This document shows positions 1-38,300 of a stretch of DNA of 43,170 nt, piece by piece (position 1 is the first letter of the stretch; every line of letters begins with the position of its first letter). This stretch comes from a virus. Lineage: Duplodnaviria; Heunggongvirae; Uroviricota; Caudoviricetes. The notes under the pieces are model-generated. The model was not told the DNA's origin, did no database searches, and saw only the letters and a program-made list of their open reading frames with translations. A program made the translations under genes and the position numbers. The stretch lies in the IMG/VR virus record IMGVR_UViG_2534682162_000010, one strand, 5' to 3'.

Positions 1-1164
1 TTACGCCTTCTTTATATCCTCCATAATTCCAGAGTGGGACATATTTGGGACATTATCACCAAAAATGTCGTCTATTTTCCTCGCATGCTCTGTCAAATGA
101 TTAGGCGCAAGGTGAGCATACCTACGAACCATTTCTATGGACTCCCATCCGCCCATTTCCTGAAGCACTGATAATGGGACGCCTGACTGAATCAGCCAGC
201 TTGCCCAGGTGTGTCTGAGGTCATGGAAACGGAAATCTTCAATTCCTGCACGACGACAAGCTGATAGCCATGATGTCTTGCTGTCGATGCGCATCTTCCT
301 GACCGCAGGCGTTGATGTTCCATCTGCTCGCTTAGCCGCCTTGGTATGTACAAACACCCATTTGTGATGCTTGCCTATTTGATCACGCAACACTTTACAG
401 GCGGTATCGTTCAGCGCCACACCAATGGCGCGGTTTGATTTGCTCTCTTCTGGATTCACCCAGGCAACTCGTCGCTGCATGTCGATTTGTTGCCATTCCA
501 GATTTATGATGTTCGACTTTCTCAGACCAGTTGCCAGCGCAAACTTGACGACAGATTTCAGTGGTTCGGGGCACTCATCAATAAGGCGTTTTGCTTCCTC
601 CTTTTCCAGCCATCTGACTCGCTTGTTTCTGACCGCTGGTATCTTGATGACAGGCGCTTTTTCCAGCCACTTCCAGTCGCGTTCTGCAGCACGGAGAATG
701 GCCTTTATCATGGCAAGATGCTTTGCCTTTGTCTGAGTTGATACTGGCTTTGGTTCATAAACAGGCAGTTCTTTACCTTTCCTGATGGCGGCCTGAACTT
801 TCTGTTTCCATATTTCTTTCGTCTTTCTGTTATGCATTCTGCTTACAGCAGAGTAAATCTTTGCCTCCGAGATATCTTTAAGCCTTATACCCTCAAAATG
901 TTCAAGCCAGAACTCAATCCGGCTTTTATCTGAATCGAGAGATTTTTTATCAGCTTTTTCCTCAAGCCATCTTAGGCAGGCCTCTTCAAAAGTGACATCA
1001 GGTAAATCCCCTAGCTTTTCTACTCGCCAGAGTTCTGCTTTTCGCTTGTCGTGCAACTCCTGAGCTTGCCGCTTGTCCTTTGTGCCAAGAGATTCCTTAA
1101 TTCGTTTCCCGCCCGGGAGCGAATACGAGGCATACCATATTTCATTTCTGCGGAAGAGTGACAT
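1..1164 (-). CDS. int: Tyrosine site-specific integrase (lambdoid, DLP12 IntD-type)
   Basis: 387-aa ORF with C-terminal catalytic box [10 protein letters not shown]...RYAHL typical of tyrosine recombinases; sits at the prophage end. attL and the tRNA target would lie left of the window. Confidence 0.93.
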
Positions 1165-1907: not shown

Positions 1908-2005
1908 CTTTCATTAATCCCTGAATTGTTGGTTAATACGCTTGAGGGTAAATGCGAATAATAAAAAAGGAGCCTGTAGCTCCCTGATGATTTTGCTTTT
2001 CATGT

Positions 2006-2489: not shown

Positions 2490-2650
2490 ACCGCCTCCCG
2501 TTTATTATTTATCTTCTCAGCCAGCCGCTGTGCTTTCAGTGGATTTCTGATAACAGAAAGGCCGGGAAATACCCAGCCTCGCTTTGTAATGGAGTAGACG
2601 AAAGTGATCGCGCCTACCCGGATATTATCGTGAGGATGCGTCATCGCCAT
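2462..2650 (-). CDS. Small early-left protein, lambda orf60a-like
   Basis: 62-aa ORF immediately downstream of exo, overlapping the exo stop and the next ORF start; position matches lambda orf60a. Confidence 0.4.
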
Positions 2651-3321
2651 TGCTCCCCAAATACAAAACCAATTTCAGCCAGTGCCTCGTCCATTTTTTC
2701 GATGAACTCCGGTACCATCTCGTCAAAACTCGCCATGTACTTTTCATCCCGCTCAACCACGACATAATGCAGTCCTTCACGCTTCATACGCGGGTCATAG
2801 TTGGCAAAGTACCAGGCATCTTTTCGTGTCACCCACATGCTGTACTGCACCTGGGCCATGTAAGCCGACTTTATGGCCTCGAAACCACCGAGCCGGAACT
2901 TCATGAAATCCCGGGAGGTAAACGGGCATTTCAGCTCAAGGCCATTGCCGTCACTGCATAAACCATCGGGAGAGCAGGCGGTGCGCATACTTTCGTCGCG
3001 ATAGATGATCGGGGATTCAGTAACATTCACGCCGGAAGTGAATTCAAACAGGGTTCTGGCGTCGTTCTCGTACTGTTTTCCCCAGGCCAGCGCCTTAGCA
3101 TTAACTTCCGGAGCCACACCGGTGCAAACCTCAGCCAGCAGGGTGTGGAAGTAGGACATTTTCATGTCAGGCCACTTCTTTCCTGAGCGGGGCTTTGCTA
3201 TCACGTTGTGAACTTCTGAAGCGGTGATGACGCCGAGCCGTAATTTGTGCCATGCATCATCCCCCTGTTCGACAGCTCTCACGTCGATCCCGGTACGCTG
3301 CAGGATAATGTCCGGTGTCAT
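2641..3321 (-). CDS. exo: Lambda exonuclease (Red alpha)
   Basis: 226-aa translation [40 protein letters not shown]... matches lambda Exo essentially along its length. Confidence 0.96.
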
Positions 3322-4103
3322 GCTGCCACCTTCTGCTCAGTGGCTTTCTGTTTCAGGAATCCAAGAGCTTTCACTGCTTCGGCCTGTGTCAGTTCTGACG
3401 ATGCGCGAATGTCGCGGCGAAATATCTGGGAACAGAGCGGCAATAAGTCGTCATCCCATGTTTTATCCAGGGCGATCAGCAGAGTGTTAATCTCCTGCAT
3501 GGTTTCATCGTTAACCGGAGTGATGTCGCGTTCTGGCTGACGTTCTGCAGTGTATGCAGTATTTTCGACAATGCGCTCGGCTTCATCCTTGTCATAGATA
3601 CCAGCAAATCCGAAGGCCAGACGGGCACACTGAATCATGGCTTTATGCCGTAACATCCGTTTGGGATGCGACTGCCACGGCCCCGTGATTTCTCTGCCTT
3701 CGCGAGTTTTGAATGGTTCGCGGCGGCATTCATCCATCCATTCGGTAACGCAGATCGGATGATTACGGTCCTTGCGGTAAATCCGGCATGTACAGGATTC
3801 ATTGTCCTGCTCAAAGTCCATGCCATCAAACTGCTGGTTTTCATTGATGATGCGGGACCAGCCATCAACGCCCACCACCGGAACGATGCCGTTCTGCTTA
3901 TCAGGGAAGGCGTAAATTTCTTTCGTCCACGGATTAAGGCCGTACTGGTTGGCGACGATCAACAATGCGATGAACTGCGCATCGCTGGCATCACCTTTAA
4001 ATGCCGTCTGGCGAAGAGTGGTGATCAGTTCCTGTGGGTCGACAGAATCCATGCCGACACGTTCAGCCAGCTTCCCTGCCAGCGTTGCGAGTGCTGTACT
4101 CAT
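3318..4103 (-). CDS. bet: Bet single-strand annealing protein (Red beta)
   Basis: 261-aa translation [66 protein letters not shown]... matches lambda Bet; 4-nt overlap with exo. Confidence 0.96.
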
Positions 4104-4108
4104 CCGTT

Positions 4109-4405
4109 TTATACCTCTGAATCAATATCAACCTGGTGGTGAGCAATGGTTTCAACCATGTACCGGATGTGTTCTGCCATGCGATCCTGAAACTCAACAT
4201 CGTCATCAAACGCACGGGTAATGGCTTTTTTGCTGGCCCCGTGACGTTGCAAATGATCGATGCAGAGTGATTCAAACAGGTGCTGGGGCAGACCTTTTTC
4301 CATGTCGTCTGCCAGTTCTGCCTCTTTCTCTTCACGGGCGATCTGCTGGTAGTGACGCGCCCAGCTCTGAGCCTCAAGACGATCCTGAATGTAATAAGCG
4401 TTCAT
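4109..4405 (-). CDS. gam: Gam, RecBCD inhibitor (short 98-aa form only)
   Basis: [60 protein letters not shown]... matches lambda GamS; SD aggag upstream. An in-frame stop 16 codons upstream rules out the long form. Confidence 0.95.
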
Positions 4406-4480
4406 GGCTGAACTCCTGAAAATGGCTGTGAAAATATCGCCCGCGAAATGCTAGGCTGATTAGGAAAACAGGAAAGGGGA

Positions 4481-4771
4481 TTAGTGATTCAGGCCGTTAC
4501 CGCGTCCGTCGAGAAAAACTTCCACGAGCAAATCACGGGTATAAGTGCGCTCGATGCCGCGATGCAGATATAGCCGTCCGCGTAAATTAGCTGATGCAGT
4601 CCAGGTACCATCTTTGTGTTTGACCAGCATTCCTGGCATGACCGCACCTCGATTAACGGTCTGCGTTCCGTAATGTTGATGAACCATAAAAACTCCTGCC
4701 CGTAAGCTGGGCTGCTGAACATATAGAGACTTCTGCGCGTATTCAGGCGGTGGATGGCCGCCGGTTGTCAT
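4481..4771 (-). CDS. Hypothetical early-left protein, first gene downstream of PL (about 96 aa from ATG; track ORF runs to 4891 with a TTG start)
   Basis: ORF between OL/PL and gam; the ATG at 4771 is preceded by gagg and a 6-bp stem-loop. Gly/His-rich, no recognisable N, Kil or CIII similarity. Confidence 0.4.
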
Positions 4772-4959
4772 AACTAAGTCGCCTCGTTGAAGCGACTGAG
4801 GTATGAAGTGTTGAGTTGATTTCAGCTGGTCACACCGACGTTCACGCGTCCGCTTCACCCCTCGCACTCCCCGGAGCCTGCTGAAATTCAAGCTGCGGAT
4901 CTAAGCGGTCATCGCAACGGTGAATCAGGTGATTGCCGTATCGTTGTGTTGTTGCGATG

Positions 4960-5030
4960 AATTCATTTAAAACTATAGTTGTTTTATCGTCAACAACAAA
5001 AGTTGTTTTGTTGGTTGTTTTAGATATAAC
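4960..5030 (-). promoter_or_regulatory. OL/PL: leftward early promoter with repressor operators
   Basis: Palindrome at 4976-5000 (reverse complement TTTGTTGTTGACGATAAAACAACTA) closely matches the OR palindrome ATGGTTGTTGACTAAAAACAACCAT; embedded -35 TTGACG (4988-4993) with 17-nt spacer to TTAAAT (4965-4970); more ACAAC/GTTGT repeats nearby. Confidence 0.6.
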
Positions 5031-5134
5031 TGGTTGTATTTAAGATGGATTTATTTTGTGACTTGCATCGCATAGCGATAACTGAAGCGAGGTCGTGGTG
5101 GTTTTTTGAACGGTGTGTGATGAGGGGAGGGCAA

Positions 5135-5165
5135 AAGAAAACCCGGCACGGTGGCCGGGTTTAGA
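5135..5165 (-). terminator. Intrinsic terminator ending the repressor operon (tIMM-like)
   Basis: On the minus strand, a 7-bp stem (ACCCGGC / GCCGGGT, 6-nt loop) is followed by TTTCTTTTG, about 75 nt after the stop of the 147-aa gene. Confidence 0.6.
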
Positions 5166-5236
5166 TGATTGGTTAAGAGCGAGGGTAATGGGGAATGAAA
5201 AATCGCTTTACCTAATGCAAGGGTGCGAGCATTTTC

Positions 5237-5680
5237 TTAAGCACTAAAGAAAAAGTACATTGATAGCTTATAAAGTCCTGTTCCTGCAGCGATGATTGCT
5301 GGAACACCAAGCAATACCGCAAGCTTTGCGTCTGAAATCTTTCTATCGACAGCATCACTTGATGGCTTGTTTGTTAAGGATTCTTTTATAGAGTCCAGAC
5401 GTGCAAGAATAGTTATCATATTTTTGTCGATAGCTTTAACGTCTGTTTTAAGTTCATCAACGTCTCGTTTGATATGAGCAACATCGGACTCCAGTTTTGC
5501 AACTTTTTCAGGCATGTTATCACTCCCAGACCCACTGCTACCACTTGATTGTAGCATGTCCCATCTTTTTCCAGATATACCTGCTAGCTGGGAAGACGCA
5601 CTGGAGTGCAAACAAAATGATTCTGCCGCCTTTGCAATTTTATCATTTAGGTTTGGAGCTTCGTAATAATCGTGTTTCAT
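5237..5680 (-). CDS. Tail-anchored coiled-coil membrane protein (147 aa), lysogeny-operon cargo, function unknown
   Basis: ORF with a Ser/Gly-rich linker, a charged heptad-like segment (EKVAKLESDVAHIKRDVDELKTDVKAIDKNMITILARLDSIKESL) and one C-terminal hydrophobic helix (LAVLLGVPAIIAAGTGLY); AT-rich; lies between cI and OL/PL. Confidence 0.6.
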   Translation of the reverse strand: MKHDYYEAPNLNDKIAKAAESFCLHSSASSQLAGISGKRWDMLQSSGSSGSGSDNMPEKVAKLESDVAHIKRDVDELKTDVKAIDKNMITILARLDSIKESLTNKPSSDAVDRKISDAKLAVLLGVPAIIAAGTGLYKLSMYFFFSA

Positions 5681-5692
5681 AATTAATTACGA

Positions 5693-5955
5693 TTAGTTTG
5701 TTTTAGCTTTGTCATGCTGGTCGCGAATGAAGTCAGCCAATTTAAGCATCAATTCTTCGGGCATTCTAATGGTTGCAATGTTGTACTTTATGTTCTCAAC
5801 ATCGTCACTTTCATCAACAGGCCATTCAGTTACATTATGAAAAAAGAAATTGAACCTAGGCGCTGAGAGCCGTCACCAAACGAAGAGTAGCCAAACGCGT
5901 CGGCGTATGCATCGACACAGTTATTTGATTTTTTAACAAGTGTTTTATTACTCAT
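5693..5955 (-). CDS. Hypothetical small protein with an apparent -1 frame change at a T6C run (41-aa ORF 5830-5955; continuation in -1 frame to 5693 gives about 87 aa)
   Basis: ATG at 5955 with SD-like GGAAAGG; frame 0 stops after 41 codons just past tcttttttc (plus-strand A6 at 5840-5845); the -1 frame stays open for 48 more codons and ends 12 nt before the downstream gene. Could be a pseudogene, programmed frameshift or sequence error. Confidence 0.35.
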
Positions 5956-6037
5956 TTTTTGCCTTTCCCGTAATGTTATTTTTTATAAGGTATTTTCTTC
6001 AGCGTATTACCCAAAAGCCTCATCAACACGCGGCTGA

Positions 6038-6727
6038 TTATCCGTGTTTTCTGTACGTCTGCGGCATGCTCCCAATAACCTTACCGAATATGAATACCCG
6101 GTTCATCTCGTCTTTCTCGATCGGGTCCCACGGTGAGTAGCTCTTGTTATCAGAGATAACCAGTAGCTTATCCTTCATCATTTGCAGGCGCTTTACATGG
6201 GCGGTGTCGTCATACAGAAACGCATAGATACCATCACCGTCGAAAGATTTAACCGTGATATCAACGAACAGCAGATCACCTGGTTCGATCGTTCCTGACA
6301 TGCTGTCACCGCGTACGTTAATGATGCGGATATTTTCTGCCTTCCTACCATCGAACATGTGACGAGCATCGTCAAACGAGTACTCAACCGAGCGTAGAAC
6401 TTCTACAAACTCACGGTTGATGACTCCCGGCCCGGCACTCACTTCTATATCAAGAACGTCAATCTTAAAGTATTTGGAATGGCTGACAGTTGATGGTATT
6501 GGTTGCACTGTACTGTCTGACATATTTCCAACGCCAGAAGATAACCATTCTGCGCGCACACCCAAAGCGTTCGCGATCTCCACGATTTTAGTTGTTTGGT
6601 TAGCTTTCCCTGTTTCGATTTTCTGAATAGCAGCTTGGCTAACCCCGACCAAATCCCCAAGCGCCTTTTGTGTAAGGCCTCGCGCTAATCTGGCTTCTTT
6701 AAGTCTTTCTGAGAGTGTTGTTTTCAT
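6038..6727 (-). CDS. cI: CI-like prophage repressor (HTH_XRE + S24 LexA-like peptidase)
   Basis: MKTTLSERLKEARLARGLTQKALGDLVGVSQAAIQKIETG (HTH); Ala-Gly cleavage site (EVSAGPG); catalytic Ser in GDSM and Lys in VKRL. Start moved from the track ATG at 6793 (inside the operator) to the ATG at 6727. Confidence 0.88.
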   Translation of the reverse strand: MKTTLSERLKEARLARGLTQKALGDLVGVSQAAIQKIETGKANQTTKIVEIANALGVRAEWLSSGVGNMSDSTVQPIPSTVSHSKYFKIDVLDIEVSAGPGVINREFVEVLRSVEYSFDDARHMFDGRKAENIRIINVRGDSMSGTIEPGDLLFVDITVKSFDGDGIYAFLYDDTAHVKRLQMMKDKLLVISDNKSYSPWDPIEKDEMNRVFIFGKVIGSMPQTYRKHG

Positions 6728-6831
6728 AGTCCAAATGTACAACCAAGGTTTTATTCCATCAAACGAAAATGGTTGTTGACTAAAAACAACCATAGTTTTA
6801 ATCTTGATTCAAATTAACCACGGAGGTTGTT
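6728..6831. promoter_or_regulatory. OR region with divergent PRM and PR
   Basis: Perfect 25-bp palindrome ATGGTTGTTGACTAAAAACAACCAT (6769-6793) containing PR -35 TTGACT; SD ggagg before cro. On the minus strand TTGATG-17 nt-TACATT places the start at or next to the cI ATG, implying a leaderless cI mRNA as at lambda PRM. Confidence 0.6.
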
Positions 6832-7062
6832 ATGAACCCAGCTATCAAAACAGCGATCAATATCGTTGGTTCACAAAAGAAACTGGGCGCTGCCTGCGAA
6901 GTTTCACAGCAGGCCGTCTATAAGTGGCTTCACAACAAAGCAAAGGTATCCCCTGAACATGTCGGCAGCATTGTTACGGCTACTGGTGGAGTAGTGAAGG
7001 CATACCAGATTCGCCCGGATCTTCCGAAGTTGTTTCCACACACCGAAAAGAACGCAGCTTAA
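6832..7062 (+). CDS. cro: Cro-like repressor (YdaS-family HTH)
   Basis: 76-aa ORF transcribed divergently from cI directly after OR; resembles YdaS-type Cro proteins (GSQKKLGAACEVSQQAVYKW). Confidence 0.8.
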   Translation: MNPAIKTAINIVGSQKKLGAACEVSQQAVYKWLHNKAKVSPEHVGSIVTATGGVVKAYQIRPDLPKLFPHTEKNAA

Positions 7063-7131
7063 ATTTCCATTTCACGCTCTTTAACAATAAGCAATCAACT
7101 TAACAGTCAATTCAAACTAAAGGAGTCAATT

Positions 7132-7671
7132 ATGCAACCACTTACATACCAACAGACTAGCGGATTTAGCCCGACTGCGGTGATAAATCGTTCTCAAACA
7201 AAACAGGTGCCAGGCCACGAAAAAATCCGTGATGCCGTCCGCGCCTGGTCGGCTGAAGATAATCAGGATGTCGTTGCCACACTCATTGTGAATGAGTATC
7301 GGGAGCAGGGCGGCGGCACTATCGATTTCCCTGATGATGTCAGCCGTGCACGCCAGAAGCTGTTCCGCTTCCTCGATAACAAATTCGATTCTGAAAAATA
7401 CCGAAATAACGTGCGTGAACTGACCCCGGCAATTCTGGCGGTACTACCGCTGGAATATCGCGGCCACCTGGTTGAGCAGGATAGCTTCATGGCTCGGCTG
7501 GCTGAAATGGAAAAGGAACTCTGTGAGGCAAAGCAGGCGGTCATTCTCAACGCACCACGCCACCAGAAACTGAAGGAGATGAGTGAAGGCATTGTGTCGA
7601 TGTTTCGAGTGGACCCGGATCTGGCTGGTCCATTGATGGCGATGGTCACCGCCATGCTGGGGGCAATATGA
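7132..7671 (+). CDS. YdaT-family protein (CII-position regulator)
   Basis: 179 aa; motifs VNEYREQGGG and LTPAILAVLPLEYRGHL resemble Rac prophage YdaT; sits between cro and O. Confidence 0.6.
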   Translation: MQPLTYQQTSGFSPTAVINRSQTKQVPGHEKIRDAVRAWSAEDNQDVVATLIVNEYREQGGGTIDFPDDVSRARQKLFRFLDNKFDSEKYRNNVRELTPAILAVLPLEYRGHLVEQDSFMARLAEMEKELCEAKQAVILNAPRHQKLKEMSEGIVSMFRVDPDLAGPLMAMVTAMLGAI

Positions 7672-7757
7672 CAGGTTCAAAAATGGCGAAAGCCGGTCTG
7701 CGGGAACAGAGCCGACTTTCAGGTGCAAATCGTAACGCACTCATTGCGGGAGGAATT

Positions 7758-8687
7758 ATGGCAAACACTGCTGAGATATTCAATTTTCCAGTGCCGGATG
7801 TGGCACAAAAGGAGCCGCGCGTGGCAGATCTCGATGATGGTTATACGCGCATTGCAAATGAGTTGCTGGAAGCTGTAATGCTGGCCGGATTAACACAGCA
7901 CCAGCTTCTGGTCTTCCTGGCTGTCATGCGCAAAACATATGGCTTTAATAAAAAACTGGATTGGGTGAGCAACGAGCAACTTTCCGAGTTAACCGGGATA
8001 TTGCCGCACAAGTGTTCTGCTGCAAAAAGTGTTCTGGTAAAGCGTGGGATTTTTATTCAGAGCGGGCGGAATACCGGCATTAATAATGTGGTCAGTGAAT
8101 GGTCAACATTACCCGAATCAGGTAAGAAAAATAAAGTTTACCTGAAAGAGGTAAATTTACCTGAATCAGGTAAAAAAAGTTTACCCAAATCAGGTAAAGG
8201 CGTTTACCCGAATCAGGTAAACACAAAAGACAAACTAACAAAAGACAATATAAAACCTTTTTCGTCCGAGAATTCTGGCGAATCCTCTGACCAACCAGAA
8301 AACGATCTTCCTGTGGTGAAACCGGATGCTGCAATTCAGAGCGGCAGCAAGTGGGGGACAGCAGAAGACCTGACCGCCGCAGAGTGGATGTTTGACATGG
8401 TGAAGACCATCGCGCCATCAGCCAGAAAACCGAATTTTGCAGGGTGGGCTAACGATATCCGCCTGATGCGTGAACGTGACGGACGTAACCACCGCGACAT
8501 GTGCGTGCTGTTCCGCTGGGCATGCCAGGACAACTTCTGGTCCGGTAACGTGCTAAGTCCGGCCAAACTCCGCGACAAGTGGACCCAGCTCGAAATCAAC
8601 CGAAACAAGCAACAGGCTGGCGTGACAGCCGGCAAACCAAAACTCGACCTGACGAACACTGACTGGATTTACGGGGTGGAGCTATGA
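7758..8687 (+). CDS. O: Replication initiator O (iteron-binding)
   Basis: From MANTAEIFNF...VADLDDGYTRIANELLEA...LAVMRKTYGFNK the N-terminal half resembles lambda O; iterons lie inside the gene; SD gggagg before the ATG at 7758. The track start at 7668 is an upstream extension. Confidence 0.85.
   Translation: MANTAEIFNFPVPDVAQKEPRVADLDDGYTRIANELLEAVMLAGLTQHQLLVFLAVMRKTYGFNKKLDWVSNEQLSELTGILPHKCSAAKSVLVKRGIFIQSGRNTGINNVVSEWSTLPESGKKNKVYLKEVNLPESGKKSLPKSGKGVYPNQVNTKDKLTKDNIKPFSSENSGESSDQPENDLPVVKPDAAIQSGSKWGTAEDLTAAEWMFDMVKTIAPSARKPNFAGWANDIRLMRERDGRNHRDMCVLFRWACQDNFWSGNVLSPAKLRDKWTQLEINRNKQQAGVTAGKPKLDLTNTDWIYGVEL
8108..8222. repeat. Origin of replication: four iterons inside O followed by an AT-rich stretch
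   Basis: Four copies of tacc(c/t)(g/a)aatcaggtaa spaced about 20-40 bp apart, then an A/T-rich segment, as at lambda ori. Confidence 0.8.
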
Positions 8688-9385
8688 AAAACATCGCCGC
8701 ACAGATGGTTAACTTTGACTGTGAGCAGATGCGCCGGATCGCCAACAACATGCCGGAACAGTACGACGAAAAGCCACAGGTACAGCAGGTAGCGCAGATC
8801 ATCAACGGTGTGTTCAGCCAGTTACTGGCAACTTTCCCGGCGAGCCTGGCTAACCGTGACCAGAATGAACTGAACGAAATCCGCCGCCAGTGGGTTCTGG
8901 CTTTCCGGGAAAACGGGATCACCACAATGGAACAGGTTAACGCTGGAATGCGCGTAGCCCGTCGGCAGAATCGACCATTCCTGCCATCACCCGGGCAGTT
9001 TGTCGCCTGGTGCCGGGAAGAAGCATCTGTTAACGCCGGGCTGCCAAACGTCAGCGAGCTGGTTGATATGGTTTACGAGTATTGCCGGAAGCGTGGCCTG
9101 TATCCGGATGCAGAGTCTTATCCGTGGAAATCGAACGCGCATTACTGGTTGGTTACCAACTTGTACCAGAACATGCGGGCCAATGCGCTGACTGACGCGG
9201 AATTACGGCGCAAGGCTGCCGATGAACTGACCTGTATGACAGCGCGAATTAACCGTGGTGAGACGATACCTGAACCAGTAAAACAACTTCCTGTTATGGG
9301 CGGTAGACCTCTAAATCGTGCACAGGCTCTGGCGAAGATCGCAGAAATTAAAGCTAAGTTCGGACTGAAAGGAGCAAGTGTATGA
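8684..9385 (+). CDS. P: Replication protein P (DnaB helicase loader)
   Basis: 233-aa translation MKNIAAQMVNFDCEQMRRIANNMPEQYDEKPQVQQVAQIINGVFSQLLATFPASLANRDQNE... matches lambda P. Confidence 0.95.
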   Translation: MKNIAAQMVNFDCEQMRRIANNMPEQYDEKPQVQQVAQIINGVFSQLLATFPASLANRDQNELNEIRRQWVLAFRENGITTMEQVNAGMRVARRQNRPFLPSPGQFVAWCREEASVNAGLPNVSELVDMVYEYCRKRGLYPDAESYPWKSNAHYWLVTNLYQNMRANALTDAELRRKAADELTCMTARINRGETIPEPVKQLPVMGGRPLNRAQALAKIAEIKAKFGLKGASV

Positions 9386-9684
9386 CGGGCAAAGAGGCAA
9401 TTATTCATTACCTGGGGACGCATAAGAGCTTCTGTGCACAGGACGTTGCCGCGGTAACAGGCGCAACCGTAACCAGCATAAATCAGGCTGCGGCTAAAAT
9501 GGCGCGGGCAGGAATCCTGGTCGTTGATGGTAAGGTCTGGCGAACGGTGTATTACCGGTTCGCTACCAGAGAAGAACGGGAAGGAAAGGTGAGCACGAAT
9601 CTGATTTTTAAGGAGTGTCGCCAGAGTGCCGCGATGAAACGGGTATTGAGGGTATATAAAAGAACATCAATGGGAACACAATGA
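9382..9684 (+). CDS. ren: Ren (resistance to Rex exclusion)
   Basis: MTGKEAIIHYLGTHKSFCAQDVAAVTGATVTSINQAAAKMARAGILVVDGKVWRTVYYRFATREEREGK matches lambda/DLP12 Ren; C-terminus diverges. Confidence 0.85.
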   Translation: MTGKEAIIHYLGTHKSFCAQDVAAVTGATVTSINQAAAKMARAGILVVDGKVWRTVYYRFATREEREGKVSTNLIFKECRQSAAMKRVLRVYKRTSMGTQ

Positions 9685-9751
9685 TGAAACAGGTGAGTTG
9701 AGTTCAAACTGTAGTACAATTCTCTCCAGTTTGAACAGGAAAGAATATGCT

Positions 9752-10084
9752 ATGAACCCTTATATTTATCTTGGTGGTGCAATACTTGCAGAGGTCATTG
9801 GTACAACCTTAATGAAGTTTTCAGAAGGTTTTACACGGTTATGGCCATCTGTTGGTACAATTATTTGTTATTGTGCATCATTCTGGTTATTAGCTCAGAC
9901 GCTGGCTTATATTCCTACAGGGATTGCTTATGCTATCTGGTCAGGAGTCGGTATTGTCCTGATTAGTTTACTGTCATGGGGATTTTTCGGCCAACGGCTG
10001 GACCTGCCAGCCATTATAGGCATGATGTTGATTTGTGCCGGTGTGTTGGTTATTAATTTATTGTCACGAAGCACACCACATTAA
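9752..10084 (+). CDS. emrE: EmrE small multidrug resistance efflux transporter
   Basis: 110 aa from MNPYIYLGGAILAEVIGTTLMKFSEGFTRLWPSVGTIICYCASFWLLAQTLAYIPTGIAYAIWSGVGIV...; four TM helices with conserved Glu14. Confidence 0.93.
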   Translation: MNPYIYLGGAILAEVIGTTLMKFSEGFTRLWPSVGTIICYCASFWLLAQTLAYIPTGIAYAIWSGVGIVLISLLSWGFFGQRLDLPAIIGMMLICAGVLVINLLSRSTPH

Positions 10085-10114
10085 AATAATTTGTTTCTAA
10101 ACGACTAAAATATG

Positions 10115-10155
10115 GAGGCTCTTATATTTATATGAGCCTCGTTTTATGCTTTTTG
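10115..10155 (+). terminator. Intrinsic terminator after emrE
   Basis: Stem GAGGCTC / GAGCCTC with a 12-nt AT loop followed by GTTTTATGCTTTTTG. Confidence 0.6.
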
Positions 10156-10338
10156 TTAATGTCTTTATTTTTTATGTATTCTTTTGTGCTTTCAAGATTA
10201 TGGCGTAAGAAAATTGCAATACGATTATTGTTGTATATTCAAGATAATGTGACCTTAATTGTCTTTTTAAATAAAAATTAAACAAAAATTATATCCCACC
10301 ACTAAGGTTTATAAAAGCATACGTTAGCAGGTGTCACC

Positions 10339-11865
10339 ATGAAAAAAGCCATAGCATATATGCGATTTTCATCACCAGGTCAGATGTCTGGTGACTCATT
10401 AAACCGACAGAGAAGACTTATTGCTGAATGGTTAAAGGTAAATAGTGATTATTATCTTGATACCATAACATATGAAGATTTAGGATTAAGTGCATTCAAA
10501 GGAAAGCATGCACAATCAGGAGCTTTTTCGGAATTTTTAGATGCTATAGAGCATGGTTATATATTGCCAGGAACTACATTGTTAGTTGAAAGTCTGGACA
10601 GACTTTCAAGAGAAAAAGTCGGTGAAGCGATTGAACGTCTGAAATTGATTTTGAATCACGGTATTGATGTTATAACTCTTTGCGACAATACAGTCTATAA
10701 TATTGACTCTTTGAATGAGCCATATTCATTAATAAAAGCCATACTTATAGCACAAAGGGCAAATGAAGAAAGCGAGATAAAGTCAAGTCGGGTTAAATTA
10801 TCATGGAAGAAAAAACGGCAGGATGCACTGGAATCAGGTACGATTATGACGGCGTCTTGTCCGAGATGGCTCTCCTTAGATGACAAAAGAACGGCTTTTG
10901 TTCCAGACCCCGACAGGGTGAAAACTATTGAGCTAATTTTTAAACTCAGGATGGAAAGGCGCTCATTGAATGCAATAGCCAAGTATTTAAATGATCATGC
11001 TGTAAAGAATTTCTCAGGAAAAGAAAGTGCATGGGGACCTTCTGTAATTGAAAAATTATTAGCGAATAAAGCTCTGATAGGTATATGCGTACCTTCATAT
11101 CGTGCAAGAGGGAAAGGGATAAGTGAAATCGCTGGCTATTATCCCAGAGTCATATCAGATGATTTGTTTTACGCTGTACAGGAAATTCGGTTGGCACCTT
11201 TTGGTATTAGCAATAGTAGCAAGAATCCTATGCTAATAAATCTACTTCGAACAGTTATGAAGTGTGAGGCTTGTGGTAATACCATGATTGTTCATGCGGT
11301 ATCTGGAAGTTTGCATGGCTATTATGTTTGTCCGATGAGAAGATTACATCGATGTGACAGGCCATCAATAAAAAGAGATTTGGTTGATTATAATATCATT
11401 AATGAATTGCTTTTTAATTGTAGCAAAATTCAACCAGTTGAAAACAAGAAAGATGCTAATGAAACTTTAGAGTTAAAAATTATTGAGCTTCAGATGAAAA
11501 TTAATAATTTAATCGTTGCATTGTCTGTCGCGCCTGAAGTTACCGCTATAGCAGAGAAAATAAGACTATTAGATAAGGAATTACGAAGGGCTTCGGTATC
11601 ATTGAAAACTTTGAAGAGTAAAGGTGTAAATTCATTCAGTGATTTTTATGCTATTGACTTAACCAGTAAAAATGGACGAGAGTTATGCCGTACACTTGCC
11701 TATAAAACATTCGAAAAAATCATAATTAATACGGATAATAAAACCTGTGATATCTATTTTATGAATGGCATTGTTTTTAAACACTATCCTTTAATGAAAG
11801 TAATATCCGCCCAGCAGGCGATAAGTGCTCTCAAATATATGGTTGATGGTGAGATTTATTTCTAA
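10339..11865 (+). CDS. ybcK: Large serine recombinase (DLP12 YbcK-type)
   Basis: 508 aa; N-terminal resolvase-type domain (AIAYMRFSSPGQ...SLNRQ, catalytic Ser), recombinase and zinc-ribbon region (CEACGNT...C...C); very AT-rich gene. Confidence 0.85.
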   Translation: MKKAIAYMRFSSPGQMSGDSLNRQRRLIAEWLKVNSDYYLDTITYEDLGLSAFKGKHAQSGAFSEFLDAIEHGYILPGTTLLVESLDRLSREKVGEAIERLKLILNHGIDVITLCDNTVYNIDSLNEPYSLIKAILIAQRANEESEIKSSRVKLSWKKKRQDALESGTIMTASCPRWLSLDDKRTAFVPDPDRVKTIELIFKLRMERRSLNAIAKYLNDHAVKNFSGKESAWGPSVIEKLLANKALIGICVPSYRARGKGISEIAGYYPRVISDDLFYAVQEIRLAPFGISNSSKNPMLINLLRTVMKCEACGNTMIVHAVSGSLHGYYVCPMRRLHRCDRPSIKRDLVDYNIINELLFNCSKIQPVENKKDANETLELKIIELQMKINNLIVALSVAPEVTAIAEKIRLLDKELRRASVSLKTLKSKGVNSFSDFYAIDLTSKNGRELCRTLAYKTFEKIIINTDNKTCDIYFMNGIVFKHYPLMKVISAQQAISALKYMVDGEIYF

Positions 11866-12063
11866 ATAATGATCTCGGATTTTAAGTTATGCTATGGTGA
11901 TAAAGTGCAAGATAGAATTAATTATCTTTGACGAAACTTAATGGGTAATTACTTTGTTTGCTCCCACAAGCGAGTTTTGTACGGCTGTATTGGGGTAGTA
12001 AATGAGCTATACAATCTTAATCATTTGTTAGGTGAGAACTCTTGGTCGCAGATTCAAATACTG

Positions 12064-15307: not shown

Positions 15308-15392
15308 AGTCAGAGATAACAATCAACTAATACTGTTTTGTTGATTTTTGCTTGTAATTGGCGTTCTGGTCTGATTTTTGTGGAGTAAGTTG

Positions 15393-15776
15393 ATGCGTGA
15401 TATTCAGATGGTTCTTGAGCGTTGGGGAGCGTGGGCGGCTAATAATCATGAAGATGTGACCTGGTCGTCCATTGCCGCCGGTTTTAAGGGATTAATTACT
15501 TCAAAAGTAAAATCTCGCCCGCAATGTTGTGACGATGACGCGATGATCATTTGCGGGTGCATGGCCCGTCTGAAAAAGAACAACAGCGATTTGCACGATT
15601 TATTAGTAGATTATTATGTAGTCGGTATGACATTCATGTCACTGGCAGGTAAGCATTGCTGCTCTGATGGTTATATCGGGAAAAGGTTACAGAAGGCTGA
15701 GGGCATAATTGAAGGGATGTTAATGGCATTAGATATCCGGTTAGAGATGGATATCGTTGTTAATAACTCTAATTAA
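15393..15776 (+). CDS. quuD: Late-gene antiterminator Q (DLP12 QuuD-type)
   Basis: 127 aa from the ATG at 15393 ([22 protein letters not shown]...), with Cys-rich zinc-binding region and SD ggag; position between nin region and lysis genes. Confidence 0.8.
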
Positions 15777-15964: not shown

Positions 15965-17047
15965 TTAGAACTGGTAAACCATACCTACAGCAACGATATC
16001 ATCGGTAGCAACGCCAGATGCTTTCGTGAAATCGCTCTTATCAATCAGGTTGATTTTGTAATCAACAAAAGTGGACATATTTTTGTTGAAGTAATAGGTT
16101 GCACCTACATCAATATATTCAACCAGGTCCTGATCACCCCACGCACCCAAGTCTTTTCCTTTAGATTGCAGGTAAGCAACGGACGGACGCAGACCGAAGT
16201 CGAACTGATATTGTGCAACTACTTCGAAGTTTTGTGCTTTGTTGGCAATATGGTTATTACCAAAAACAGTCATGTTCTGGGTTTCAGAATAGGTGGTAGC
16301 CAGATAGATGTTGTTCGCATCATATTTCAGACCAGCTGCCCATACTTCAGCATTTTGACCAGATGCATTCAGGCTGTTGTTACCGTAGATAACCTGATTA
16401 TTAGTGCGGTCAGATTTAGCATAGGTTGCACCTACACCGAATCCTTCATACTCATAAGTAGTGGAGAAACCGAAACCATCACCATTAGCTTCAGTTACGT
16501 CAGTGCGGTCATTTTTACCCTGATACTGAGCAGCAAAGTTCAGACCATCAACCAGACCAAAGAAGTCGTTGTTACGATAAGTTGCAACACCAGTGGTGCG
16601 ACCAGTCATGAACACATCTGTTTGGGTCCAGGTATCGCCACCGAATTCTGGCAGAACGTCAGTCCACGCACCGATGTCATATGCTACACCGTAGTTACGG
16701 CCGTAATCGATTGAGCCGTAGTCCCCGAATTTCAGGCCTGCAAATGCAAGACGGGTTTTGTCTTTGGAGGAGCCTTGAGATTCAGCGCGGTTGCCTTTGA
16801 ATTCATATTCCCACTGACCGAAACCAGTCAGTTGATCGTTGATTTGGGTTTCACCTTTGAAGCCAAGACGGGCATAAGTAGTATCACCATCATCTGCATC
16901 ATTAGAGGAGAAGTAGTGCTTGGCATTAACTTTCCCATATAGATCCAGCTTGTTACTGTCTTTATTATAAATTTCAGCTGCCTGAGCAGACATCGCCATC
17001 AGTACTGATGCAGCTACAGCAGAAATTGCCACTGTTAATTTTTTCAT
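15965..17047 (-). CDS. nmpC: General porin, OmpC/OmpF/PhoE/NmpC family, intact
   Basis: 360 aa with signal peptide [23 protein letters not shown] and terminal ...VGMVYQF; 16-strand porin hallmarks; antisense to the phage late direction between Q and the holin. Confidence 0.92.
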
Positions 17048-30414: not shown

Positions 30415-32968
30415 ACCGGTAGGCGATCTGGTCGTTGATTTGAGTCTGGATGCGGCCAGATTTGACGAGCAGATGGCCAGAGTCAGGCGTCATTTTTCCG
30501 GTACGGAAAGTGATGCGAAAAAAACAGCGGCAGTCGTTGAACAGTCGCTGAGCCGACAGGCGCTGGCTGCACAGAAAGCGGGGATTTCCGTCGGGCAGTA
30601 TAAAGCCGCCATGCGTATGCTGCCTGCACAGTTCACCGACGTGGCCACGCAGCTTGCAGGCGGGCAAAGTCCGTGGCTGATCCTGCTGCAACAGGGGGGG
30701 CAGGTGAAGGACTCCTTCGGCGGGATGATCCCCATGTTCAGGGGGCTTGCCGGTGCGATCACCCTGCCGATGGTGGGGGCCACCTCGCTGGCGGTGGCGA
30801 CCGGTGCGCTGGCGTATGCCTGGTATCAGGGCAACTCAACCCTGTCCGATTTCAACAAAACGCTGGTCCTTTCCGGCAATCAGGCGGGACTGACGGCAGA
30901 TCGTATGCTGGTCCTGTCCAGAGCCGGGCAGGCGGCAGGGCTGACGTTTAACCAGACCAGCGAGTCACTCAGCGCACTGGTTAAGGCGGGGGTAAGCGGT
31001 GAGGCTCAGATTGCGTCCATCAGCCAGAGTGTGGCGCGTTTCTCCTCTGCATCCGGCGTGGAGGTGGACAAGGTCGCTGAAGCCTTCGGGAAGCTGACCA
31101 CAGACCCGACGTCGGGGCTGACGGCGATGGCACGCCAGTTCCATAACGTGACGGCGGAGCAGATTGCGTATGTTGCTCAGTTGCAGCGTTCCGGCGATGA
31201 GGCCGGGGCATTGCAGGCGGCGAACGAGGCCGCAACGAAAGGGTTTGATGACCAGACCCGCCGCCTGAAAGAGAACATGGGCACGCTGGAGACCTGGGCA
31301 GACAGGACAGCGCGGGCATTCAAATCCATGTGGGATGCGGTGCTGGATATTGGTCGTCCTGATACCGCGCAGGAGATGCTGATTAAGGCAGAGGCTGCGT
31401 TTAAGAAAGCAGACGACATCTGGAATCTGCGCAAGGATGATTATTTTGTTAACGATGAAGCGCGGGCGCGTTACTGGGATGATCGTGAAAAGGCCCGTCT
31501 TGCGCTTGAAGTCGCCCGAAAGAAGGCTGAGCAGCAGACTCAACAGGACAAAAATGCGCAGCAGCAGAGCGATACCGAAGCGTCACGGCTGAAATATACC
31601 GAAGAGGCGCAGAAGGCTTACGAACGGCTGCAGACGCCGCTGGAGAAATATACCGCCCGTCAGGAAGAACTGAACAAGGCACTGAAAGACGGGAAAATCC
31701 TGCAGGCGGATTACAACACGCTGATGGCGGCGGCGAAAAAGGATTATGAAGCGACGCTGAAAAAGCCGAAACAGTCCGGCGTGAAGGTGTCTGCGGGCGA
31801 TCGTCAGGAAGACAGTGCTCATGCTGCCCTGCTGACGCTTCAGGCAGAACTCCGGACGCTGGAGAAGCATGCCGGAGCGAATGAGAAAATCAGCCAGCAG
31901 CGCCGGGATTTGTGGAAGGCAGAAAGTCAGTTCGCGGTACTGGAGGAGGCGGCACAACGTCGCCAGCTGTCCGCACAGGAGAAATCCCTGCTGGCGCATA
32001 AAGATGAGACGCTGGAGTACAAACGCCAGCTGGCTGCACTTGGCGACAAGGTTACGTATCAGGAGCGCCTGAACGCGCTGGCGCAGCAGGCGGATAAATT
32101 CGCACAGCAGCAACGGGCAAAACGGGCCGCCATTGATGCGAAAAACCGGGGGCTGACTGACCGGCAGGCAGCGCGGGAAGCCACAGAACAGCGTCTGAAG
32201 GAACAGTATGGCGATAATCCGCTGGCGCTGAATAACGTCATGTCAGAGCAGAAAAAGACCTGGGCGGCTGAAGACCAGCTTCGCGGGAACTGGATGGCAG
32301 GCCTGAAGTCCGGCTGGAGTGAGTGGGAAGAGAGCGCCACGGACAGTATGTCGCAGGTAAAAAGTGCAGCCACGCAGACCTTTGATGGTATTGCACAGAA
32401 TATGGCGGCGATGCTGACCGGCAGTGAGCAGAACTGGCGCAGCTTCACCCGTTCCGTGCTGTCCATGATGACAGAAATTCTGCTTAAGCAGGCAATGGTG
32501 GGGATTGTCGGGAGTATCGGCAGCGCCATTGGCGGGGCTGTTGGTGGCGGCGCATCCGCGTCAGGCGGTACAGCCATTCAGGCCGCTGCGGCGAAATTCC
32601 ATTTTGCAACCGGAGGATTTACGGGAACCGGCGGCAAATATGAGCCAGCGGGGATTGTTCACCGTGGTGAGTTTGTCTTCACGAAGGAGGCAACCAGCCG
32701 GATTGGCGTGGGGAATCTTTACCGGCTGATGCGCGGCTATGCCACCGGCGGTTATGTCGGTACACCGGGCAGTCTGGCTGACAGCCGGTCGCAGGCGTCC
32801 GGGACGTTTGAGCAGAATAACCATGTGGTGATTAACAACGACGGCACGAACGGGCAGATAGGTCCGGCTGCTCTGAAGGCGGTGTATGACATGGCCCGCA
32901 AGGGTGCCCGTGATGAAATTCAGACACAGATGCGTGATGGTGGCCTGTTCTCCGGAGGTGGACGATGA
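30407..32968 (+). CDS. H: Tail tape measure protein H
   Basis: 853-aa, largely alpha-helical Ala/Gln-rich protein in lambda order; translation matches lambda gpH. Confidence 0.95.
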   Translation: MAEPVGDLVVDLSLDAARFDEQMARVRRHFSGTESDAKKTAAVVEQSLSRQALAAQKAGISVGQYKAAMRMLPAQFTDVATQLAGGQSPWLILLQQGGQVKDSFGGMIPMFRGLAGAITLPMVGATSLAVATGALAYAWYQGNSTLSDFNKTLVLSGNQAGLTADRMLVLSRAGQAAGLTFNQTSESLSALVKAGVSGEAQIASISQSVARFSSASGVEVDKVAEAFGKLTTDPTSGLTAMARQFHNVTAEQIAYVAQLQRSGDEAGALQAANEAATKGFDDQTRRLKENMGTLETWADRTARAFKSMWDAVLDIGRPDTAQEMLIKAEAAFKKADDIWNLRKDDYFVNDEARARYWDDREKARLALEVARKKAEQQTQQDKNAQQQSDTEASRLKYTEEAQKAYERLQTPLEKYTARQEELNKALKDGKILQADYNTLMAAAKKDYEATLKKPKQSGVKVSAGDRQEDSAHAALLTLQAELRTLEKHAGANEKISQQRRDLWKAESQFAVLEEAAQRRQLSAQEKSLLAHKDETLEYKRQLAALGDKVTYQERLNALAQQADKFAQQQRAKRAAIDAKNRGLTDRQAAREATEQRLKEQYGDNPLALNNVMSEQKKTWAAEDQLRGNWMAGLKSGWSEWEESATDSMSQVKSAATQTFDGIAQNMAAMLTGSEQNWRSFTRSVLSMMTEILLKQAMVGIVGSIGSAIGGAVGGGASASGGTAIQAAAAKFHFATGGFTGTGGKYEPAGIVHRGEFVFTKEATSRIGVGNLYRLMRGYATGGYVGTPGSLADSRSQASGTFEQNNHVVINNDGTNGQIGPAALKAVYDMARKGARDEIQTQMRDGGLFSGGGR

Positions 32969-35369: not shown

Positions 35370-38300
35370 ATGGGTAAAGGCAGCAGTAAGGGGCATACCC
35401 CGCGCGAAGCGAAGGACAACCTGAAATCATCCCAGATGCTGAGCGTGATAGACGCCATCAGTGAAGGGCCGATTGAAGGTCCGGTGGACGGATTAAAAAG
35501 TGTGCTGCTGAACAGTACGCCAGTGCTGGACAGTGAGGGGAATACCAATATCTCCGGTGTCACGGTGGTGTTCCGGGCAGGTGAGCAGGAGCAGACACCG
35601 CCGGAGGGATTTGAATCCTCCGGATCCGAGACGGTGCTGGGTACGGAAGTGAAGTACGACACGCCGATTACCCGGACCATCACGTCTGCAAACATCGACC
35701 GTCTGCGCTTTACCTTCGGTGTGCAGGCACTGGTGGAAACCACCTCAAAGGGGGACCGGAATCCGTCGGAAGTCCGCCTGCTGGTTCAGATACAACGTAA
35801 CGGTGGCTGGGTGACGGAAAAAGACATCACCATTAAGGGAAAAACCACCTCACAGTATCTGGCCTCGGTGGTGGTGGGTAACCTGCCGCCGCGCCCGTTT
35901 AATATCCGGATGCGCAGGATGACGCCGGACAGCACTACAGACCAGCAGCAGAACAAAACGCTCTGGTCGTCATACACCGAAATCATCGATGTGAAACAGT
36001 GCTACCCGAATACGGCACTGGTCGGCGTTCAGGTGGACTCGGAGCAGTTCGGCAGCCAGCAGGTGAGCCGTAATTATCATCTTCGCGGGCGTATTCTGCA
36101 GGTGCCGTCGAACTATAACCCGCAGACGCGACAATACAGCGGTATCTGGGACGGGACGTTTAAACCGGCATACAGCAACAGCATGGCATGGTGTCTGTGG
36201 GATATGCTGACCCATCCGCGCTACGGCATGGGGAAACGTCTTGGTGCGGCGGATGTGGACAAATGGGCGCTGTATGTCATCGGCCAGTATTGCGACCAGT
36301 CGGTGCCGGATGGTTTTGGTGGCACGGAGCCGCGCATCACCTGTAACGCTTACCTGACCACACAGCGTAAGGCGTGGGATGTTCTCAGTGATTTCTGCTC
36401 GGCGATGCGCTGTATGCCGGTATGGAACGGGCAGACGCTGACGTTCGTGCAGGACCGACCGTCGGATAAGGTGTGGACCTATAACCGCAGTAATGTGGTG
36501 ATGCCGGATGATGGCGCGCCGTTCCGCTACAGTTTCAGCGCCCTGAAGGACCGCCATAATGCCGTTGAGGTGAACTGGATTGACCCGAATAACGGCTGGG
36601 AAACGGCAACAGAGCTTGTGGAGGATACGCAGGCCATTGCCCGTTACGGTCGTAACGTCACGAAGATGGATGCCTTTGGCTGTACCAGCCGGGGGCAGGC
36701 GCACCGTGCCGGGCTGTGGCTGATAAAAACGGAGCTGCTGGAGACGCAGACCGTGGACTTCAGTGTGGGCGCAGAAGGGCTTCGCCATGTACCGGGCGAT
36801 GTTATTGAAATCTGTGATGATGACTATGCGGGTATCAGCATCGGTGGCCGCGTGCTGGCGGTGAACAGCCAGACACGGACGTTGACGCTCGACCGTGAAA
36901 TCACGCTGCCATCCTCCGGTACTACGCTGATAAGCCTGGTTGACGGAAGTGGCAATCCGGTCAGCGTGGAGGTCCAGTCCGTCACCGAAGGCGTGAAGGT
37001 AAAAGTGAGCCGTGTTCCTGACGGCGTTGCAGAATGCAGCGTGTGGGGGCTGAAGTTGCCGACGTTGCGCCAGCGCCTGTTCCGCTGCGTGAGTATCCGT
37101 GAGAACGACGACGGCACGTACGCTGTCACTGCCGTGCAGCATGTGCCTGAAAAAGAGGCCATCGTGGATAACGGGGCGCACTTTGACGGCGACCAGAGCG
37201 GCACGGTGAATGGCGTTACTCCGCCAGCGGTGCAGCACCTGACCGCCGAAGTCACCGTAGACAGCGGGGAATATCAGGTGCTGGCGCGCTGGGACACGCC
37301 GAAGGTGGTGAAGGGCGTGAGCTTCCTGCTTCGCCTGACCGTGGCAGCGGATGACGGCAGTGAGCGGCTGGTCAGCACGGCCCGGACGACGGAAACAACA
37401 TACCGCTTCAGGCAGCTGGCGCTGGGGAACTACAGGCTGACAGTCCGGGCAGTAAATGCCTGGGGGCAGCAGGGAGACCCAGCGTCGGTATCGTTCCGGA
37501 TTGCCGCACCGGCAGCGCCGTCACAGATTGAGCTGACGCCGGGCTATTTTCAGATAACTGCCACGCCGCATCTTGCGGTTTATGATCCGACGGTACAGTT
37601 TGAGTTCTGGTTCTCGGAAACGCGGATTACCGATATCAGGCAGGTTGAAACCACAGCCCGCTACCTTGGCACGGGGCTGTACTGGATAGCCGCCAGTATC
37701 AATATCAAACCGGGCCATGATTATTACTTTTATATCCGCAGTGTGAACACCGTTGGCAAATCGGCATTCGTGGAGGCCGTCGGTCGGGCGAGCGATGATG
37801 CGGAAGGTTACCTGGATTTTTTCAAAGGCAAGATAACCGAATCCCATCTCGGTAAAGAGCTGCTGGAAAAAGTCGATCTGACGGAGGATAACGCCAGCAG
37901 ACTGGATGAGTTTTCGAAAGAGTGGAAGGATGCCAACGATAAATGGAATGCCATGTGGGCTGTCAAAATTGAGCAGACCAAAGACGGCAAACATTATGTC
38001 GCGGGTATTGGCCTCAGTATGGAGGACACGGAGGAAGGCAAACTGAGTCAGTTTCTGGTTGCCGCTAACCGTATCGCGTTTATTGACCCGGCAAACGGGA
38101 ATGAAACGCCGATGTTTGTGGCGCAGGGCAACCAGATATTCATGAACGACGTGTTCCTGAAACGCCTGACGGCACCCACCATTACCAGCGGTGGCAGTCC
38201 TCCGGTATTTTCCCTGACATCAGACGGAAAGCTGACCGCTAAAAATGCGGATATCAGTGGCAGTGTGAATGCGAACTCCGGGACGCTCAACAATGTCACG

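Follow-up and report, generated by a model that had tools for sequence, protein, structure and literature searches.

The 43,170-nucleotide (nt) stretch of DNA analysed here (IMG/VR record IMGVR_UViG_2534682162_000010, Caudoviricetes; hereafter the window) is a lambdoid prophage in which early, late and structural genes are all represented, and our subject is its early-left operon, which runs from the leftward promoter PL in the order PL, ~270-nt leader, kil, gam, bet, exo. The first gene of this operon, for which an earlier sequence-only reading had proposed a possible new early function, was found to be a KilR-type kil, and neither an N gene, nor nutL, nor a put element could be detected with it. 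The reading that we favour, with a probability of roughly 0.6, is that kil, gam, bet and exo are expressed independently of N, and that the leader tunes kil. It is built around the following features (aa, amino acids; bp, base pairs; ORF, open reading frame; uORF, upstream ORF):

~5008-4965, minus strand: leftward operator and promoter (OL/PL), with -35 TTGACG at 4993-4988, a 17-nt spacer and -10 TTAAAT at 4970-4965
4936-4958, minus strand: CATCGCAACAACACAACGATA, the beginning (~23 nt) of the predicted PL transcript, with homologous counterparts at the PL transcript starts of phi80, HK225, HK639, S9-5 and phiEt88
4808-4935, minus strand: leader core, 128 nt, non-coding, with a G-rich centre and C-rich flanks, in the slot that holds put or boxA and N in relatives
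4777-4797, minus strand: predicted 9-bp hairpin, AGUCGCUUC-AAC-GAGGCGACU, immediately before the uORF start
4688-4771, minus strand: uORF from ATG 4771 (MTTGGHPPP...), fused in frame to kil in the window allele to give a 96-aa ORF
4481-4687, minus strand: kil, 68 aa from ATG 4687, with a Shine-Dalgarno sequence AGGAG at 4697-4693, 5 nt upstream

The ORF flagged in the sequence-only reading was present with the extents given there, 4481-4771 from ATG 4771 (96 aa) and up to 4891 from a TTG start (4891-4481, 136 aa). Profile searches matched PHROG 294 (“Kil protein for bacterial septation inhibition”) to residues 60-136 of the 136-aa product with an E value of 1.4e-38, and NCBIfam PRK11354, the model of Rac KilR named “FtsZ inhibitor protein”, to residues 69-136 with an E value of 6.6e-17 and a score of 61 bits, short of the 92-bit cutoff for the subfamily. 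Over its last 68 residues the product shares 36% identity with Rac KilR (BLASTP, E 9e-13) and 85% with the 68-aa Kil of HK225. Pfam gave no match for the product, and BLASTP no alignment between it and lambda Kil. In both related E. coli prophages that we inspected, the RefSeq gene is one of 207 nt that begins at the equivalent of ATG 4687 and is named “cell division inhibitor protein”, and the annotation of phage 4A7 likewise places the kil start there. The gene lies directly upstream of gam-bet-exo, and its size of 68 aa fits the small early-left Kil proteins (~70-83 aa). Judged by these profile and pairwise similarities, there is very little doubt that the flagged ORF encodes a cell-division (FtsZ) inhibitor of the KilR family, with ATG 4687 as the probable start of a 68-aa protein; inhibition of FtsZ and of cell division by the window protein itself would be expected from this homology. 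The gene had been described as resembling neither N, Kil nor CIII of lambda, 21 or P22. This holds in so far as the product is unrelated to lambda Kil, N and cIII, and it does not hold for Kil proteins at large, as the matches to KilR and to PHROG 294 make clear; because of the same homologies to PHROG 294, PRK11354 and KilR, a new early function for the first gene is no longer called for.

The upstream part of the flagged frame fared differently from its kil part. We compared 43 distinct natural versions of the leader, drawn from 80 IMG/VR loci encoding an identical Kil, and found the 136-aa TTG frame interrupted in 18 of them, either by a C-to-T stop or by insertions and deletions of +1, -1 or +5 nt. 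The TTG start has no Shine-Dalgarno sequence, and the PHROG and NCBIfam matches begin only at residues 60-69. With the frame broken in 18 of 43 variants, the Arg-rich peptide RLRGVRGVKRTRERR, which had been taken for an extension of the first gene, is neither a gene product nor an N-like arginine-rich motif, and is an accident of an untranslated leader. The uORF that starts at ATG 4771 is open in all 43 variants, and its sequence past HPPP differs between phage groups: in phi80, HK225 and HK639 it is a separate 21-aa peptide, and in E. coli IrN it ends after 10 codons. The hairpin at 4797-4777 and the start of the uORF (MTTGGHPPP) are kept at the DNA level in phi80, HK225 and HK639, where a terminator immediately precedes them and the kil gene block follows. 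The segment of the window that comprises them, 4807-4746, is the only stretch shared with phi80 and HK225, in which it follows N, other early genes and a terminator. In the phage records compared, hairpin and uORF were located at 3000-3100 in both L006 and L007 and at ~2580-2660 on the minus strand of L098.

Two properties of the leader bear on how kil may be controlled. Its C/G ratio rises to 1.3-1.9 in C-rich stretches at 4958-4915 and 4853-4763, and the PPP run of the uORF suggests a ribosome-stalling leader peptide, dependent on EF-P, that would control downstream expression. The leader and its uORF likely control kil, a toxic division inhibitor. As a separate observation, E. coli Res13-Lact-PEA14-20 (record L096, 2612-4087) carries an IS3-family element within the leader, after the equivalent of window position ~4851; the insertion parts PL from kil, and may have inactivated kil expression.

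We sought N, nut and put elements with several tools. When lambda N, the phi80 “N”, the early-left proteins of HK225 and HK639, cIII and lambda Kil were compared with the 43-kb window by tblastn, all matches had E values above 0.1 and none was near the early region. PHROG scans of the early ORFs returned Kil, DksA-like, Ren, Q and unknowns, with no N among them, and no N is annotated in phage 4A7, a deposited genome with the same left operon. No match to boxA (YGCTCTTTAACAA) with up to 3 mismatches was found on the minus strand from PL to int. In agreement with the sequence-only reading, no N or nutL was thus detected at or after PL, and no boxA/boxB pair between PL and the first gene; nor was there a canonical N or nut site elsewhere in the early-left operon. 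By elimination, the operon cannot use antitermination of the lambda, 21 or P22 N type.

For put, we built a covariance model from eight sequences (HK022 putL and putR, together with the elements of UPF_BP1, phiEt88, CobraSix, S9-5, HK639 and PdC23), in which 7 of 18 pairs show compensatory changes, and searched the window with all filters off. The best match, with an E value of 0.38, fell in the head genes, and nothing was found at the PL or PR leader; nor was any similarity to HK022 put visible by eye in the window. A putative put remnant, suggested by a shared ACGGCAAT, was dropped, since its CGATA belongs to the common PL transcript start. Permissive Rfam scans returned matches at chance level only, both over 3500-12000 and when restricted to the PL leader and to the cro-cII spacer. 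The ops element (GGCGGTAGNNTG, up to 2 mismatches) was absent from the minus strand of 4680-4960, where the sole match was on the plus strand, and its total in the window equals chance expectation. The Rac small RNA KilS was considered as a homolog of the leader and rejected for want of similarity. With the put model and the ops scan both negative, put and RfaH recruitment are excluded, and HK022-type put, the Rfam families, ops/RfaH and a divergent N are ruled out in the window. Of the earlier description as a whole, the lack of N and nutL and the short form of Gam stand, and the new-function gene, the Arg-rich peptide and the place of the mosaic junction do not.

Terminators were mapped on both strands. 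From PL to exo, the only terminator-like sites are a weak pair located within coding sequence, and on the plus strand no intrinsic terminator is predicted from cro to Q. Further along the left operon, two stronger sites are met:

2548-2580, minus strand: terminator-like 9-bp hairpin with a T-tract, inside the orf60a homolog and mapping to lambda ~31,255-31,287, which we take to be tL3
1960-1985, minus strand: strong terminator-like site inside a doubtful 31-aa ORF (1914-2009); it has an 8-bp stem, TTTTTTATTATT, and precedes the DksA-like gene, DUF4222, xis and int

We propose that transcription from PL would reach kil, gam, bet and exo with no help from processive antitermination, since terminator-free DNA stands in for the part of lambda with N, tL1 and most of the tL2 cluster. 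With its C-rich stretches, hairpin and PPP-containing uORF, the untranslated leader would serve mainly to restrain and time the toxic kil, probably through Rho/NusG-dependent attenuation combined with translational coupling. Transcripts left unmodified would for the most part end at the retained tL3-like site and the 1985-1960 terminator. For this mechanistic part we would put the odds at about even. A precedent for the attenuation step is offered by kilR of the Rac prophage, which is kept silent by NusG/Rho termination (PMC5793797, where Cardinale et al. 2008 is cited to this effect).

Several points weigh against N-independent expression with a leader devoted to kil. Xis and int are separated from exo by the two intrinsic terminators (2580-2548 and 1985-1960), and no sigma-70-like promoter was predicted between these terminators and int; a phage that needs excision after induction would gain from antitermination, the absence of which the proposal does not account for. 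The 128-nt core is placed exactly in the put/nutL slot of relatives. The case for Rho dependence of the leader consists of base composition and the analogy to Rac kilR. Finally, the 96-aa frame is also open in the window allele, from which either a 68-aa or a 96-aa Kil may be made.

One alternative places the regulatory signal on the right side of the immunity region, where a single element stands out:

7075-7087, plus strand: CGCTCTTTAACAA, the sole exact match to the boxA consensus in the window, immediately following cro where nutR would canonically lie

According to this alternative, the boxA would recruit NusB/NusE, together with NusA, NusG and SuhB, for an rrn-like antitermination that depends on Nus factors alone and shields the PR operon from Rho, with the PL operon, which has no equivalent, not antiterminated. 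A 13-nt consensus match occurring only once in 43 kb, and at precisely this position, argues in its favour, as does the surrounding post-cro spacer, which is strongly C-rich and G-poor and in that respect rut-like (C/G ratio 2-3). The boxA is moreover kept in all relatives of immunity type A, and the recruitment of the Nus complex by boxA alone at rrn and other E. coli loci (PMC5725501, PMC4807359) likewise counts for such a role of the PR boxA. No boxB-like hairpin follows it, and there is no boxA partner on the PL side. On the other hand, it may be a relic of an N-dependent ancestor, and phages of immunity types B and C, including 4A7, share the left operon and have no boxA; they possess only a ~30-nt gap between cro and cII, in which a small hairpin spans the stop codon of cro. 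The boxA is therefore dispensable for the phage family, and a mechanism based on it is silent about PL. We entertain it tentatively, as a minority possibility; a role of the PR boxA of this kind could coexist both with N-independent expression from PL and with the alternative considered next.

That alternative assigns the missing function to the 128-nt core itself, as a new cis-acting RNA for processive antitermination (or a site for a host factor), put-like in action but unrelated to put, with whose help RNA polymerase from PL would pass the tL3-like and 1985-1960 terminators and reach xis/int. The position of the core is suggestive: after homologous PL starts, phi80 and HK225 have boxA and N, HK639, S9-5, phiEt88 and UPF_BP1 have put, and the window has the core. 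Next to the leader, three different immunity regions are found, with the boundary at the transcript start in types A and B and at 4924 in type C, and the core remains linked to kil-gam-bet-exo across all three. The terminators ahead of xis/int would provide it with a purpose, and HK639, which is annotated with only a left-side put-like element, sets a precedent for a single site on the PL side. As a weak hint, 19 of 98 predicted paired positions are variable among the leader variants, as compared with 42 of 100 unpaired ones, in a structure that was derived from the same alignment and with C-to-U changes dominant; changes at predicted pairs are mostly wobble-compatible transitions.

Other properties of the core are less encouraging. 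The leader around it folds with an energy that does not surpass that of shuffled sequence (z -0.83 for 281 nt and -0.91 for 151 nt), and no compensatory base-pair change was seen among 42 leader variants that are 95-100% identical, in a test that is circular, the structure having come from the same alignment. In the most divergent copy found, that of E. coli IrN, the core is 95.6% identical, as against 94.7% for kil and 97% for gam, so that it is not specially conserved relative to neighbouring coding DNA, and one predicted outer helix is weakened there. No second copy exists on the PR side of the window. Sequences 94.5-100% identical to the core came from 16 of the 50,697 phage records, and allowing E values up to 10 added no others; a 21-nt stretch from inside the core, compared with one genome per bacterial species (GTDB representatives), returned a single near-identical contig, from a mislabelled metagenome-assembled genome. 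These searches found no homologs of the core beyond the phage family. Overall, the evidence for the leader as a structured RNA leans negative, and we consider an antiterminator in the core unlikely. Nothing positive for a new cis-acting RNA emerged apart from the place of the core in the put/nutL slot and the two intrinsic terminators behind which xis/int lie.

It is worth mentioning that two motifs, CGCAGCTTRAATTTC and AATCAACTYAACA, are collinear in the PL leader (4883-4897 and 4809-4821) and in the post-cro spacer (7053-7067 and 7093-7105). The left pair flanks a 61-nt G-rich insert and the right pair flanks boxA; individually, both matches are marginal (E 0.08 and 0.7).

The same distribution data speak to another possibility, namely that the window is a defective prophage from which N and nutL were deleted, leaving the leader as junk at the deletion scar. 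Decayed lambdoid prophages are numerous in E. coli chromosomes, and the N slot holds only ~150 nt. However, the layout is identical in the 16 phage genome records that carry the core, several of which list E. coli C, MG1655 or ECOR13 as host, and the window has its early, late and structural genes in full. A 161-nt query that contains the core (4965-4805) has matches in 2210 of 5426 complete E. coli genomes (~40%), at 95-100% identity and with a median of one copy per genome, 2045 of the 2210 being covered to at least 80%; no gene is annotated at the leader by PGAP/RefSeq among the E. coli matches listed. A scar would be expected to survive, at least in part, next to an N gene in some phage, and no phage in the database has the core, even partial, in such a position. 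The layout, shared by 16 deposited phage genomes and 2210 of 5426 complete E. coli genomes, is functional, and a deletion scar is a very unlikely account of it. Hardest of all to credit is the notion that the 136-aa TTG ORF encodes a divergent protein of the N kind, fused to a Kil domain and with an Arg-rich N-terminus that would bind an RNA hairpin: the peptide is superficially like arginine-rich motifs and the frame is open in the window and in 25 of 43 variants, but besides the broken frames, the bare TTG start and the late onset of the family profiles described above, RefSeq has no gene annotated at this place, lambda N shows no similarity to the product, and no boxA/boxB target was found. 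Both of these last two explanations are essentially excluded.

The junction between the leader-kil module and the recombination genes could be placed more exactly than before. Three features define the region:

4109-4405, minus strand: gam, short form only (GamS-length, 98 aa), 297 nt, 97% identical to lambda at the DNA level
4406-4480, minus strand: 75-nt kil-gam spacer, corresponding to DNA that codes for the N-terminus of lambda GamL, here out of frame
4481-4487, minus strand: mosaic junction at the shared ...CACTAA end of two unrelated kil genes, those of the window and of lambda

In blastn comparisons, window 4487-2293 aligns with lambda 33193-31000 at 97.4% identity, the homology extending at least to 2293. 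As lambda homology starts at 4487, the junction lies in the last codons of kil, and the earlier view that the homology begins abruptly at gam, with a junction near 4410-4450, had it misplaced by ~40-70 bp. The other part of that view is borne out: only the short Gam is possible, the TAG at 4451-4453 being accompanied by further stops and a frameshift that leave nothing but the 98-aa frame. The GamL frame was lost through two substitutions (CCCGGC to CCTAGC, creating TAG 4453-4451) and a 1-nt insertion (TTT to TTTT, 4422-4419), both within DNA homologous to lambda; two TAA codons are found in the gam frame further upstream of the TAG, and the start codon of lambda GamL belongs to what was replaced. 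In all related phages, gam is annotated with a length of 297 nt.

The remaining landmarks of the window, taken from its ORFs and annotation, are those of a lambdoid prophage, with xis and small genes beside int on the minus strand, and O, P, ren and nin-type genes on the plus strand:

1-1164, minus strand: int
2641-3321, minus strand: exo
3318-4103, minus strand: bet
5139-5162, minus strand: terminator of the cI-moron operon, homologous to the lambda terminator after rexB (lambda 35796-35826)
6038-6793, minus strand: CI-type repressor
6832-7062, plus strand: cro
15378-15776, plus strand: Q-like antiterminator

OL/PL was found at the place given for it in the sequence-only reading, and the PL transcript is predicted to start at ~4958. 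A 19-nt operator/promoter block is common to OL/PL and to the rightward operator and promoter (OR/PR, 6783-6801), where it is inverted and 95% complementary. When immunity types A and B are compared, the boundary of homology coincides with the PL transcript start. The P22-like Salmonella phage UPF_BP1 has a near-identical PL promoter/operator (window 4965-5000), followed directly by an HK022-type putL; aligned with the window, it is a clean case of module exchange exactly at the transcript start. On the other side of the promoter, ~110 nt between the cI-operon terminator and OL (5010-5138, minus strand; …CCTCATCACACACCGTTCAAAAAACCACCAC…GTTATCGCTATGCGATGCAAGTCACAAAAT) are kept across immunity types A and B despite their differing operators.

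Upstream of PL, just before the terminator of the cI-moron operon, a boxA-like sequence, CGCTCTTAACCAA, is located at 5169-5181 on the minus strand; its first nine bases presumably match the boxA of lambda nutL. We do not regard the 5181-5169 site as functional: it is part of the cassette of a 147-aa moron and is missing in relatives with other morons, and we take it for a chance match or a relic. The moron itself (5237-5680, minus strand), between cI and PL in the rex position, is predicted to have a coiled coil and a hydrophobic C-terminal tail, and belongs to PHROG 3556; the cargo of relatives at this position differs, including genes annotated GevT/GevA or a pair of ASCH-domain genes. The gene in the cII position (7132-7671, plus strand) encodes a YdaT-toxin-domain protein (Pfam PF06254, E 3e-29; PHROG 163, “CII-like”), which makes the immunity region one of the Rac racR-ydaS-ydaT type, not of the lambda cII type. 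Two further ORFs look like moron insertions, as in DLP12-type prophages: one of 508 aa in the nin region (10339-11865, plus strand), at the position of a gene annotated as recombinase-family in 4A7, and one of 360 aa between Q and the lysis genes (15965-17047, minus strand), where 4A7 has a porin (OmpC/NmpC-like) gene, the correspondence in both cases being one of position only.

Mostly, then, the findings are ordinary: the gene is known, Gam is normal for its module, the mosaic boundary is of a common sort, and the layout has been deposited many times. What retains interest is a leader that sits in the regulatory slot of N/nut or put, in ~40% of complete E. coli genomes and in 16 phages. Should it control elongation, it would represent a third kind of lambdoid early antitermination signal, replacing N/nut and put in common E. 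coli prophages; should it not, lambdoid early-left development can dispense with processive antitermination, and the question shifts to how the excision genes are switched on. The kilR homolog of Rac has itself been linked to host stress physiology.

Comparison with known systems shows where the window departs from each. Rac KilR and the Kil proteins of phi80, HK225 and HK639 are homologous to the window protein (68 versus 73 aa) and occupy the same early-left place ahead of the recombination genes, and phi80, HK225 and HK639 share with it the hairpin and the MTTGGHPPP uORF before kil. However, at 61 bits against the 92-bit cutoff, the window protein belongs to the wider Kil family and is not a KilR ortholog. 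Its gene is also the first of the PL operon, whereas in Rac, phi80, HK225 and HK639 it is preceded by other genes, terminators or a small RNA (KilS), and the uORF, separate in phi80, HK225 and HK639, is fused in frame to kil in the window allele. Of the two forms of lambda Gam, GamL (138 aa) and GamS (98 aa), the window protein corresponds to GamS, the GamL extension being disabled. With the N/nutL system of lambda, and likewise with those of the 21, P22 and phi80 types, the operon shares its logic of PL/OL, recombination genes and terminators before xis/int; unlike them, the window has a perfect boxA at the nutR position only, and neither N nor a boxA/boxB on the PL side.

The put phages HK022 and HK639 are likewise N-less lambdoids in which a non-coding element follows directly after a homologous PL start, as in the window, where the core begins ~23 nt into the predicted transcript, and the cro and YdaT-like cII of HK639 are the nearest relatives of the window immunity region found outside the phage family. 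The leader nevertheless has no sequence match to put, no covariation-backed signature of two stem-loops (GAACGGC...GGCGGG...CAAUG) and no right-side copy, and position after PL alone confers no membership in the put class. The phage family is thus another N-less lambdoid group, with a KilR-type kil in first place and with neither put nor nutL. Early expression without N is also known from LLS, which has no N homolog and for which the authors only speculate on a put-like mechanism (PMC12315714), whereas put is excluded in the window, and from the N-independent lambda derivatives (nin5/byp), with both of which the window has in common the lack of predicted intrinsic terminators between PR and Q and between PL and exo; in contrast to nin5/byp, the layout described here is no laboratory deletion but natural and very common.

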